Origin: a virus
Reading direction: 5' to 3' (one strand)
Virus record (IMG/VR): IMGVR_UViG_3300013108_000188
DNA: 64,000 nucleotides
Part shown: piece after piece, positions 13,121 through 14,622 of the stretch
How the letters are laid out: each line of letters opens with the position of its first letter
Numbering within the stretch: the first letter of the stretch is position 1
Program-made: the position numbers and the translations under genes
Notes under the pieces: generated by a model
What the model was told of the DNA's origin: nothing
Databases searched by the model: none
What the model saw: only the letters and a program-made list of their open reading frames with translations

Positions 13121-13149
13121 AATATAACATAATCTATAAAAGAAGTCAA
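13121..13149 (-). promoter_or_regulatory. sigma70-type promoter for peroxiredoxin
   Basis: TTGACT-N17-TATATT with TG extended -10. Confidence 0.65.
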
Positions 13150-13174
13150 TAGGCCGTGGTTTATTACGGCCTAT
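13136..13174 (-). terminator. intrinsic terminator after hsp20
   Basis: 9-bp stem ATAGGCCGT/ACGGCCTAT followed by an interrupted T-rich tract. Confidence 0.65.
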
Positions 13175-13222
13175 CAACATTTAGCTAATTAGCGAAGCTA
13201 AAACGCCACTCCGCTGTATTAC

Positions 13223-13675
13223 TTATTTAATCTTAATAGTTCTAGGTTTCTTACCTTCAGGGACTATTTTAACTAAAGATACTCTTAAAAGACCGTCTTT
13301 AAGTTCAGCACCTTTTACTTCCACATCGTCAGCGATAGTAAAAGTTCTGCTAAAGTTTCTTTTAGCGATACCTTTATGAAGTACACCATCGTTGTCCTCA
13401 ACTTCTTGCGTTTCTTGGTCTTTCTTTGAAACGATTGTTAGAACATTGTCGGCATATTCAACAGAAACATCTTCTTTAGAATATCCTGCTAATGCGACTT
13501 CTATATCATAAGTCAGTTTACCTGTCTTTCTGATATTGTATGGTGGATAATTTGAGACTCTTGGAAAGTTTAAGTCTGTATCTAGCATTGACTCAAAATG
13601 GTCAAATACTGAATCGAAACCTACACTTATAGGTCTTAAATTATTAAAAAATTGAATTGCTTTTGAATTGGTCAT
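13223..13675 (-). CDS. small heat-shock protein Hsp20 (IbpA-like)
   Basis: YPPYNI, IEVALAG, LHKGIAKRNFSRTF, AELKDGLL, C-terminal IKI. Confidence 0.97.
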   Translation of the reverse strand: MTNSKAIQFFNNLRPISVGFDSVFDHFESMLDTDLNFPRVSNYPPYNIRKTGKLTYDIEVALAGYSKEDVSVEYADNVLTIVSKKDQETQEVEDNDGVLHKGIAKRNFSRTFTIADDVEVKGAELKDGLLRVSLVKIVPEGKKPRTIKIK

Positions 13676-13680
13676 AATTG

Positions 13681-13734
13681 AACCTCCTTTTGTTAAGCAA
13701 AGTTAATTTTCCGAGAACCCATTATGGCGTTCTC
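13681..13734 (-). promoter_or_regulatory. ROSE-like RNA thermometer in the hsp20 5' UTR
   Basis: Hairpin GAGAAC/GTTCTC, then AACTTTGCTT-AACAA-AAGGAGGTT, where UUGCU with a bulged G pairs with the SD. Confidence 0.6.
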
Positions 13735-13739
13735 TATAT

Positions 13740-13771
13740 TATTTATATAAGTACTATCTCAAAAATGTCAA
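13740..13771 (-). promoter_or_regulatory. overlapping sigma70 and T4-late promoters for hsp20
   Basis: TTGACA at 13766-13771; TATAAATA at 13740-13747. Confidence 0.7.
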
Positions 13772-13782
13772 GCACTTAATAT

Positions 13783-13920
13783 AAAAAAGTGGTGGTTTTT
13801 ACATAGACATATTCGTCTTATGAGGAGAACCACCTAAACTCCAGCGACACCGTATTTGATTTAATATCTGGTTACGGCGACCTTTTACGCTCTGCCAGGA
13901 CTTATGAATTGCCTAAGCAT
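13783..13920 (-). ncRNA. candidate structured small RNA with 3' pseudoknot
   Basis: Own promoter TTGCAA-N17-TATATT (13921-13949), several stems, pseudoknot GGAG/CTCC plus GGTGGTT/AACCACC, ends in a T-tract, no meaningful ORF. Confidence 0.55.
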
Positions 13921-13963
13921 AATATATATACAACTTCAACAAATTGCAACAGCGTAAAATACA

Positions 13964-14167
13964 TTAATATCCTCTTTGAGCCATCAGCTTTTTCTTATTT
14001 TTTAAGAAAGCTCTAGTCATTTCTTTTTTCTTACGATTCTTTTTGTCGCAAGGTTTTTCATAATATTGACGCTGACGCAGTTCTTTTAATCTGCCATCTT
14101 TCTGGAGTTTCTTCTTTAAAACTCTCATTGCTTGCTCAACATTATTATTTCTAACTACTACTAACAA
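13964..14167 (-). CDS. rpsU: 30S ribosomal protein bS21
   Basis: VVVRNNNVEQAMRVLKKKLQKDG...RQYYEKP; TTG start with GGAGG SD. Confidence 0.95.
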   Translation of the reverse strand: MLVVVRNNNVEQAMRVLKKKLQKDGRLKELRQRQYYEKPCDKKNRKKKEMTRAFLKNKKKLMAQRGY

Positions 14168-14181
14168 CTTTATTACCTCCT

Positions 14182-14622
14182 TTACACATAATTTGTACTA
14201 TAAAATTTTAAATATTTGTATTCTTCTGGTGACAAATCTTTAATAAAGACCATTTTTTCTTGGTCCATATATACATCATACCTAACTTCACCATTTTTTC
14301 TTTTGGTTTTTCCACATTTAAATCCTTCTTTTATCTCCCACATCCTAGCTTGAGGACTTCTATCTGTTGGACACTCAATCCAAATAAAACCTTTTTTACA
14401 TTTTTCTATTTGATTTAATTTTAAACTACAACAATTATTAACTACATACCTTGTTTGTGTTTTAATTTCTTTTCTTTTATCATCTACTAAAATATCTTTC
14501 TCCATATCAAATGGATTTAAAGATAGATGTATTTTATGACCTAGTGAAGAACAATGATTAGCATAAATCTTCTCTCCTAAATCTCCTAAAATTTTCATTC
14601 TTTCTTTTTCACTTATGTTCAT
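14182..14622 (-). CDS. hypothetical protein, possible PD-(D/E)xK nuclease
   Basis: GDLGE...KDILVD...EIKT spacing matches the restriction-endonuclease-like fold. Confidence 0.5.
   Translation of the reverse strand: MNISEKERMKILGDLGEKIYANHCSSLGHKIHLSLNPFDMEKDILVDDKRKEIKTQTRYVVNNCCSLKLNQIEKCKKGFIWIECPTDRSPQARMWEIKEGFKCGKTKRKNGEVRYDVYMDQEKMVFIKDLSPEEYKYLKFYSTNYV

Follow-up and report, generated by a model that had tools for sequence, protein, structure and literature searches.

A covarying RNA element with predicted pseudoknots is conserved upstream of hsp20 in T4-like pelagimyophages

We have found that the region between S21 and hsp20 in a T4-like pelagimyophage holds a structured RNA element whose sequence and position are conserved, whose helices covary, and which is linked to hsp20 in nearly every phage that carries it. 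We give about an even chance to the reading that this element is a conserved noncoding RNA module of the hsp20 transcription unit, belonging to a new (pelagi)myophage RNA family and acting in cis as a distal leader or regulator. Because the element precedes hsp20 in more than 100 related phages, we prefer an hsp20 control region to the free-standing small RNA that a preliminary description of this DNA had proposed; the near-absolute linkage to hsp20, together with the contiguous leader of the relatives that lack S21, makes a cis role in the expression of hsp20 the reading with the best support.

Results

Locus and content of the element

The window (the whole 64,000-nucleotide stretch that was analyzed) comes from a T4-like pelagimyophage. 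Among cultured phages, blastn found just two relatives, the Pelagibacter phages Mosig and HTVC008M, both matched through hsp20. The genes around the element all lie on the minus strand, in the order cobS, three small open reading frames (ORFs), S21 (14167-13964, stop codon 13964-13966), the candidate element (13783-13959), hsp20 (13675-13223, ATG at 13675), peroxiredoxin, gp45 and gp44. The structured unit that the preliminary description placed between S21 and hsp20 is there on the minus strand, complete with its stems (among them the 5' hairpin TTAGG/CCTGG), its pseudoknot, its T6 run and its 11-codon ORF, and it is indeed richer in GC (0.38-0.40) than the window as a whole (0.33) and the flanks (0.29-0.33). 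The ORF, which would encode MLRQFISPGRA, has an ATG in 34 of 100 homologues, in differing frames and with lengths of 1-39 codons; with no conservation of the ORF, the reading as a small protein gene is unsupported by these sequences. The single-sequence fold has a z-score of -1.49, which alone is not above chance, so that it is the comparative evidence presented below, not the fold of one sequence, that marks the element as more than chance.

We also compared the region with marine metatranscriptomes. Seventeen RNA runs share 16-32% of the words of positions 13200-14200, and the contigs of four of them were compared. These contigs, which cannot show starts, ends or absence, cover hsp20 with its leader as far as 13718, as well as S21 (13946-14141). 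Positions 13744-13945 are uncovered, and because contig data cannot show absence they are silent on the expression of the element.

Homologues and distribution

Homologues were collected in two ways. The first set consisted of 80 viral contigs retrieved by their Hsp20 protein, and about 40 of these 80 hsp20 loci carry the element in the same place, with 70-93% identity by blastn. The second came from a scan of IMG/VR with a pattern of the TATA box and the hairpin loop, which yielded at least 119 further stretches. The two sets combined contain at least 122 distinct elements, on viral contigs of pelagimyophage-like character. Among the 122 elements listed, hsp20 lies downstream in 119, at 120-540 nt from the P2 hairpin described below, and S21 lies upstream in 95; at three loci (L051, L062, L065) an ORF sits between the element and hsp20. 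The elements without S21 (21-26 among those listed) belong to related T4-like phages with the order cobS-element-hsp20-gp45-gp44 and ∼52-57% identity in gp44, and a comparison of their sequences with cultured phages gave no match.

A covariance model of the element returns exactly one match per locus, which in the window lies at 13787-13971 (86.5 bits, E = 3.7e-17). Applied to complete genomes, the model finds one copy in Mosig (E = 1.4e-9) and one in HTVC008M; the latter match is weak (E = 0.015) but falls at the expected spot, where inspection by eye shows two hairpins, their loops of the CUCGUAA type, and then the pseudoknot. The same search pattern matched 58 times in 596 Gb of prokaryote genomes, and only 3 of these matches are true by the covariance model, all of them on contigs of MAGs (L250, 118.7 kb, from a Porticoccaceae MAG; L249; L256). 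These three are probably mis-binned pelagimyophage-like contigs.

The loci of some relatives hold further RNA features. In Mosig, an extra RNA module of ∼210-230 nt (L001 1175-1345) lies between the first and second copies of the pseudoknot-2 unit, and this module recurs in L032, L034, L035, L052, L053, L060, L064, L076, L078, L080 and L145. It has covarying stems, including a closing CUGGY/RCCAG stem and a hairpin AGAGG-GUGAGACCUA-CCUCU, and it matches no Rfam family. The Mosig annotation gives two small hypothetical ORFs for it, Mosig_00015 and Mosig_00014, both probably spurious. In HTVC008M a tRNA sits immediately upstream of S21 (L002 1707-1780, called by ARAGORN as Gly with anticodon ACC), and downstream of hsp20 five loci (L035, L052, L073, L076, L078) give Rfam tRNA matches, at 43-47 bits, which are not called by ARAGORN. 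One locus has a true glutamine riboswitch (L085 1751-1803, minus strand; RF01739, 64.9 bits) just downstream of hsp20 and on its strand; the window has none.

Covariation in the helices

The preliminary description had named an absence of covariation as evidence against an RNA; we found covariation in the helices of the element. In an alignment of 100 matches to the covariance model, 90.3% of cells pair, compared with 69.3% in shuffled alignments and 39-46% when partners are slid, and double changes occur in 29 of the 31 pairs; no shuffle reached the observed values. Because this alignment is fitted to the covariance model, we also relied, for the helix P1, on an unfitted test in which RNAalifold was given 81 non-redundant sequences that MAFFT had aligned by sequence only. 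Here P1 was predicted unaided, with 8 pairs, 7 of them showing compensatory changes. One further helix, S1 of pseudoknot 2, is not part of the covariance model, and a MAFFT alignment of pseudoknot 2 alone left it out of register. Since alignment did not bring S1 into register, it was tested by partner swapping: the strands score 4.14 with their own partners versus 3.78 ± 0.09 with swapped ones, and none of 1000 swaps reached the observed value.

P1 and P2

P1 is a long-range helix, absent from the list of stems in the preliminary description, that encloses the promoter-like TATATATA box and the P2 hairpin. Its 5' strand, TTTTACGCT (13951-13959, minus strand), starts 4 nt past the S21 stop codon and pairs with the 3' strand, AGCGTAAAA (13883-13891, minus strand). 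In the model alignment, 95% of its cells pair and all 9 of its pairs show double changes. More than 15 complementary versions occur, among them TTTTACGCC/GGCGTAAAA, TCTATGCC/GGTATAGA, TTTGTCCTC/GAGGACAAA and CTCCATCG/CGATGGAG, and G-U pairs appear on the minus strand only, that is, the strand of the element. Across the S21-linked copies, P1 begins 1-6 nt after the S21 stop codon. The 5' strand of P1 is upstream of the proposed promoter, and hence transcripts coming from S21 belong to the structure that has been selected.

P2 is a hairpin (13894-13918, minus strand) with a stem of 13912-13916 paired to 13895-13899 and a 12-nt loop (13900-13911), which is CAATTCATAAGT in the window. Its stem pairs show double changes in the model alignment and exist in 39 distinct 5-bp versions, while the loop is fixed as C-N-N-U-Y-C-R-U-A-A-G-W. 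The loop pattern was used in the search, so this invariance is partly built in; the set derived by blastn has the same loop. Within the window the P2 hairpin occurs as a single copy.

Two predicted pseudoknots

The next stem of the preliminary description, CGCCGTA (13873-13879) with TACGGTG (13848-13854), is present as described, and we refer to it as the alpha helix. What had been missed is a short helix, P3, in which GGT (13880-13882) pairs with ACC (13870-13872) and whose loop supplies the 5' strand of the alpha helix, making this second stem an H-type pseudoknot (pseudoknot 1, 13848-13882, minus strand) with an AU-rich linker (13855-13869, minus strand). All 7 pairs of the alpha helix show double changes in the model alignment, with variants such as CCGAC/GTCGG and TGGGTAC/GTACCCA. 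For P3 we found 7 complementary variants by eye, including GGGA/TCCC, AGGT/ACCT, ACGT/ACGT, GAGT/ACTC and GGC/GCC. Pseudoknot 1 differs by subclass: in one the long helix has been swapped outright (TGGGTAC/GTACCCA), and in another a plain hairpin is found. The joining sequence that follows, GTGTCGCT (13843-13850, minus strand), is invariant or near-invariant in alignment A2 and missing in the TCTATGCC-type subclass.

Pseudoknot 2 (13791-13842, minus strand), also predicted to be of the H type, contains the pairing of GGAG with CTCC and of the loop GGTGGTT with AACCACC across a CATAAGAC/GTCTATG hairpin, just as the preliminary description had it. Its helix S1 joins GGAG (13839-13842) to CTCC (13824-13827), and its helix S2 joins GGTGGTT (13828-13834) to AACCACC (13791-13797), both on the minus strand. 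Loop L1 is TTTA, and loop L3 holds the hairpin (13802-13822), which is an insertion found only in the closest relatives of the window. S2 shows double changes in 9 of 9 pairs, with 94% of cells pairing in the model alignment, and we counted ∼30 complementary S1 pairs and 39 S2 pairs among the variants. U makes up 60% of L1, and A makes up 65% of L3. Pseudoknot 2 occurs in all classes of relatives. Covariation thus supports both helices of pseudoknot 2 as well as the alpha helix and P3 of pseudoknot 1, so that both structures qualify as H-type pseudoknots, in which the strands run in the order S1-5', S2-5', S1-3', S2-3'.

The promoter-like box

The preliminary description had given the element its own promoter, TTGCAA-N17-TATATT, overlapping TATATATA. 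These motifs are present in the window (13921-13949, minus strand; TTGCAA at 13949-13944, a 17-nt spacer, TATATT at 13926-13921), and the box TATATATATT (13921-13930, minus strand), in which TATATATA (13930-13923) overlaps TATATT, ends ∼4 nt before P2. The box is near-invariant and keeps a fixed distance to P2. Its -35 partner, TTGCAA, is not conserved and is absent even from close relatives, and in S21-linked relatives the mean -35 score is 3.30, versus 3.24 in shuffled sequence. In a promoter scan the window site has 9 of 12 matches, and the region holds 5 promoter-like sites, compared with 7.9 in shuffles. The relatives without S21 have a -35 of at least 5/6 at a 16-17-nt spacer from TATATA in 14 of 21 cases, against 3.8% in shuffles; in these phages P2 starts 7-11 nt past the box, and pseudoknot 2 follows directly.

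The window contains eight late sites, TATAAATA, all on the minus strand and elsewhere than in the element, and TATATATA, which has one mismatch, occurs once. Some relatives have an exact late TATAAATA or ATAAATAG at the position of the box. Because the -35 of S21-linked copies is not conserved and TATATATA is one base off the late consensus, an internal start is uncertain; the sequences make a start at the base of P2 likely, perhaps one that is independent of a -35 element.

The 3' end and the hsp20 leader

The T6 run in which the preliminary description let the RNA end is present (13783-13788, minus strand), after S2, and gives a terminator-like end. Together with S2 it amounts to a 7-bp stem, GGTGGTT/AACCACC, followed by ACT6, with a 33-nt 'loop', and a terminator scan makes no call on it. 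Among the homologues, a U-run of at least 4 after the last helix occurs in only 19 of 100, and in many homologues the hsp20 promoter, with its -35 or its late box, begins within 1-10 nt past S2. The T6 of the window is therefore a minority state, which judging from the sequence would probably give a discrete 3' end and end the cobS-S21 operon.

Downstream of T6, the window has a second, early+late promoter for hsp20 and a leader (13676-13771, minus strand), with TTGACA at 13766-13771, a late TATAAATA at 13740-13747, and a ROSE-like leader. The leader (13670-13736, minus strand) matches ROSE_3 with 25 bits, below the gathering score of 43. It has a hairpin, GAGAAC...GUUCUC, followed by UUGCUUAAC facing the Shine-Dalgarno (SD) sequence AAGGAGG, and this two-hairpin leader is kept in all classes of relatives. 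With T6 and a separate hsp20 promoter, a discrete RNA of ∼135 nt is possible in the window; the same two features separate the element from hsp20, so that a cis role in this phage needs read-through.

The relatives without S21 are simpler. They have neither P1 nor pseudoknot 1, and their RNA runs into the ROSE-like hairpin and the hsp20 SD with no terminator or second promoter in between. Because these relatives keep just the box, P2 and pseudoknot 2, we take these three to be the conserved core, with hsp20 as its partner. Judging from the layout of these sequences, the element would in most relatives form the distal portion of a long leader to hsp20.

Beyond hsp20, a canonical terminator with a 13-bp stem and a T-run (13145-13178, minus strand) indicates that the phage uses ordinary terminators elsewhere. 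It overlaps the -35 of the peroxiredoxin promoter, TTGACT-N17-TATATT (13121-13149, minus strand).

Comparison with known RNA families

The preliminary description had asked for a comparison with Rfam and suggested that the element might belong to the manA or wcaG families or else be new. At gathering scores, Rfam 15 gave no match anywhere in the window, across 25 diverse loci the element had no match either, and at E values up to 10 nothing relevant appeared on the element in 13600-14050 or in Mosig (L001:1000-1450). The element therefore belongs neither to manA or wcaG nor to another family of Rfam 15, and the suggestion that it is new is the one that stands. The element itself matches no ROSE model, and a literature search found no description of it. 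A survey of pelagimyophages reported that a riboswitch scan gave no regulatory RNAs (PMC7029224). The earlier statement that the RNA is not tRNA-like agrees with our results: ARAGORN finds no tRNA or tmRNA in the window, nor at the element when 8 loci were scanned, and no Rfam tRNA or tmRNA model matches the element.

A number of more specific ideas were tried and rejected. A tmRNA or tRNA-like minihelix, with P1 as acceptor stem and P2 as T arm, lacks a CCA end and runs against the negative ARAGORN and Rfam results. Anticodon-loop mimicry by the P2 loop (UUCGUAA, UUCAUAA or CUCGUAA, resembling Thr-CGU or Met-CAU) is contradicted by the R position, which varies between G and A, and by the flanking loop bases, which show no pairing covariation. 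Pairing of the P2 loop with the ROSE anti-SD (UAAG/CUUA) would amount to 4-5 bp only and shows no covariation; a loop motif shared by P2 and the ROSE-side hairpin was dropped because the loop of the latter varies; and a pairing of GUCGCU with the 3' strand of P1 likewise shows no covariation. A RegB site at GGAG is contradicted by the GGAG covarying away, and pseudoknots that stimulate stop-codon read-through or frameshifting by their wrong spacing. A putative RegA operator in the P2 loop, suggested by a resemblance, was set aside as well.

Discussion

A cis-acting module of the hsp20 unit

The picture that these results give is of a core in which a hairpin with a fixed 12-nt loop comes right after a TATA-type box and precedes an H-type pseudoknot, whose loop 1 is rich in U and whose loop 3 is rich in A, and to which S21-linked phages add pseudoknot 1 and P1. 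Because the 5' strand of P1 lies upstream of the box, P1 would form only in RNA that reads through from S21, and the module would exist in two differently folded forms; this restriction depends on the internal start being real. Since P1 lies so close behind the stop codon, it would be expected to be covered by a ribosome that terminates on S21. The module most likely works on hsp20 expression in cis, through effects on stability, folding or factor binding. In the phage of the window, it would probably also be released as an RNA of ∼135-175 nt and would end the upstream operon.

By analogy, the most concrete candidate function is that of an operator for self-repression by Hsp20. [quoted passage not shown] The phage Hsp20 proteins are 38-44% identical to IbpA, and R106 of the window protein (motif GIAKRNF) aligns with R93, where IbpB has Q; of the 178 instances of this motif across the retrieved loci, 177 have arginine at this position. 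An arginine of the R93 type is widespread in small heat-shock proteins, so that its conservation is weak evidence for self-regulation.

The fixed P2 loop is a point against the hsp20-leader reading, which gives no reason for it, and so is the ORF that separates the element from hsp20 in some relatives. A rather speculative proposal, and one that we think unlikely to be right as it stands, is that the P2 loop and tandem triple-helix-type pseudoknots bind the phage Hsp20 or another factor of phage or host, such as RNA polymerase or RegA; in long transcripts of hsp20 the module would serve as an operator, and in phages like the one studied it would be set free as a decoy, with P1, which begins within the reach of a ribosome terminating on S21, switching the RNA between an inactive read-through form and an active form.

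Alternative explanations

The stand-alone, trans-acting small RNA of the preliminary description, made from its own promoter, ending at T6, and acting on host or phage targets or titrating a protein, would account for the promoter-like box, the T6 run and the separate hsp20 promoter of the window and its close relatives. The ∼220-nt structured module that Mosig-type relatives add, which has no coding signal, also looks more like part of a stable RNA than of a leader, and two pseudoknots with a fixed loop exceed the needs of a plain leader. The comparison with relatives does not support the claim as stated. P1 needs RNA from upstream of the promoter whose -35 is not conserved, ∼81% of the homologues lack the U-run, where S21 is missing the element forms one uninterrupted stretch with the leader of hsp20, the linkage to hsp20 is almost absolute, and no target complementarity was found; we therefore see only a small chance that this account is correct. 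Of the related statement that the RNA is a phage noncoding RNA beside translation-related genes, the first part stands, and the second gives way to its membership in the hsp20 locus. A role as a 3' element of the cobS...S21 operon (a processing site, a barrier to exonucleases and a terminator for read-through transcripts, with the AU-rich box as a single-stranded RNase E site), would explain why P1 covaries and begins so close behind the S21 stop codon, why S21-linked copies have no -35, and why the window has a T6 that would end the operon. We consider it improbable, since the relatives that lack S21 have an obvious sigma70 promoter with P2 and pseudoknot 2, but not P1, behind it, since a terminator is missing from most copies, and since the conserved partner is hsp20 rather than S21.

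The element might also be a sensing attenuator, a riboswitch or thermosensor in which a ligand or the temperature refolds the pseudoknots and so sets read-through into hsp20. Its position in front of a heat-shock gene whose leader is itself ROSE-like, the loops of pseudoknot 2, rich in U and in A as is typical of triple-helix pseudoknots, and the overlap of the terminator-like end with a pseudoknot in the window are all in keeping with such a device. Yet the element matches none of the riboswitch families, even with E values of up to 10 allowed, the pseudoknot loops have no conserved nucleotides beyond their richness in U and A, most copies lack the U-run, and we found no covarying, mutually exclusive alternative fold, all of which leaves a sensor distinctly improbable. 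That the structure is a matter of DNA, as an operator or promoter architecture, or of chance, might be thought from a hairpin placed exactly at a promoter and from the unremarkable single-sequence z-score of -1.49. But arms that covary around a fixed loop are the reverse of what a palindrome bound by a protein would show, G-U pairs keep to the strand of the element, and shuffled and slid controls fall far below the observed pairing. Such an origin is very hard to believe, and covariation in the sequences largely refutes it.

Significance and comparison with known systems

Pelagimyophages infect SAR11, the most abundant marine bacteria. The new RNA family is well supported and has more than 120 variants, with two predicted pseudoknots and a promoter-like box nested in a stem; it is absent from Rfam, which it could join, and it could improve the annotation of phages. 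Its biology is directly testable because the cultured phages HTVC008M and Mosig carry the element and their host can be grown. If the family regulates or binds the phage small heat-shock protein, the feedback between IbpA and its mRNA would extend to viruses; and if the protein-binding reading is true, a phage gene for a ribosomal protein (S21), a chaperone and an RNA sensor would be coupled in one circuit, in viruses that are among the most abundant of the ocean.

Seen against known systems, the end of the element in the window resembles an intrinsic terminator in its 7-bp stem, GGTGGTT/AACCACC, followed by ACT6, but the 33-nt 'loop' contains a pseudoknot strand and a hairpin, and ∼81% of the homologues have no U-run. 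With the Rfam families manA, wcaG and the glutamine riboswitch it shares the character of a structured RNA, in some of them with pseudoknots, in marine T4-like phages; it differs from them in sequence and structure, matching none of them whether the limit is the gathering score or an E value of 10. The T4 genes e, soc, 49 and I-TevI have an internal promoter inside a hairpin, the 3' strand of which hides the ribosome-binding site. The element is similar in that the P1 strands flank the box, such that read-through RNA would fold the stem and RNA from the internal start could not. Unlike in T4, the 3' strand of P1 hides no SD or start codon and instead stacks next to P2, and the internal box is TATATATA rather than the late consensus TATAAATA.

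A parallel to the proposed cis role is offered by the ROSE and ibpA leaders, which likewise are multi-hairpin leaders of small heat-shock genes, with upstream stem-loops apart from the hairpin that masks the SD. The protein is comparable as well, the phage Hsp20 being IbpA-like with the arginine equivalent to R93. In the window, unlike in those leaders, T6 and the second promoter split the element from the thermometer. And where the ibpA leader consists of three simple stem-loops, the phage element combines a fixed-loop hairpin with one or two predicted H-type pseudoknots.
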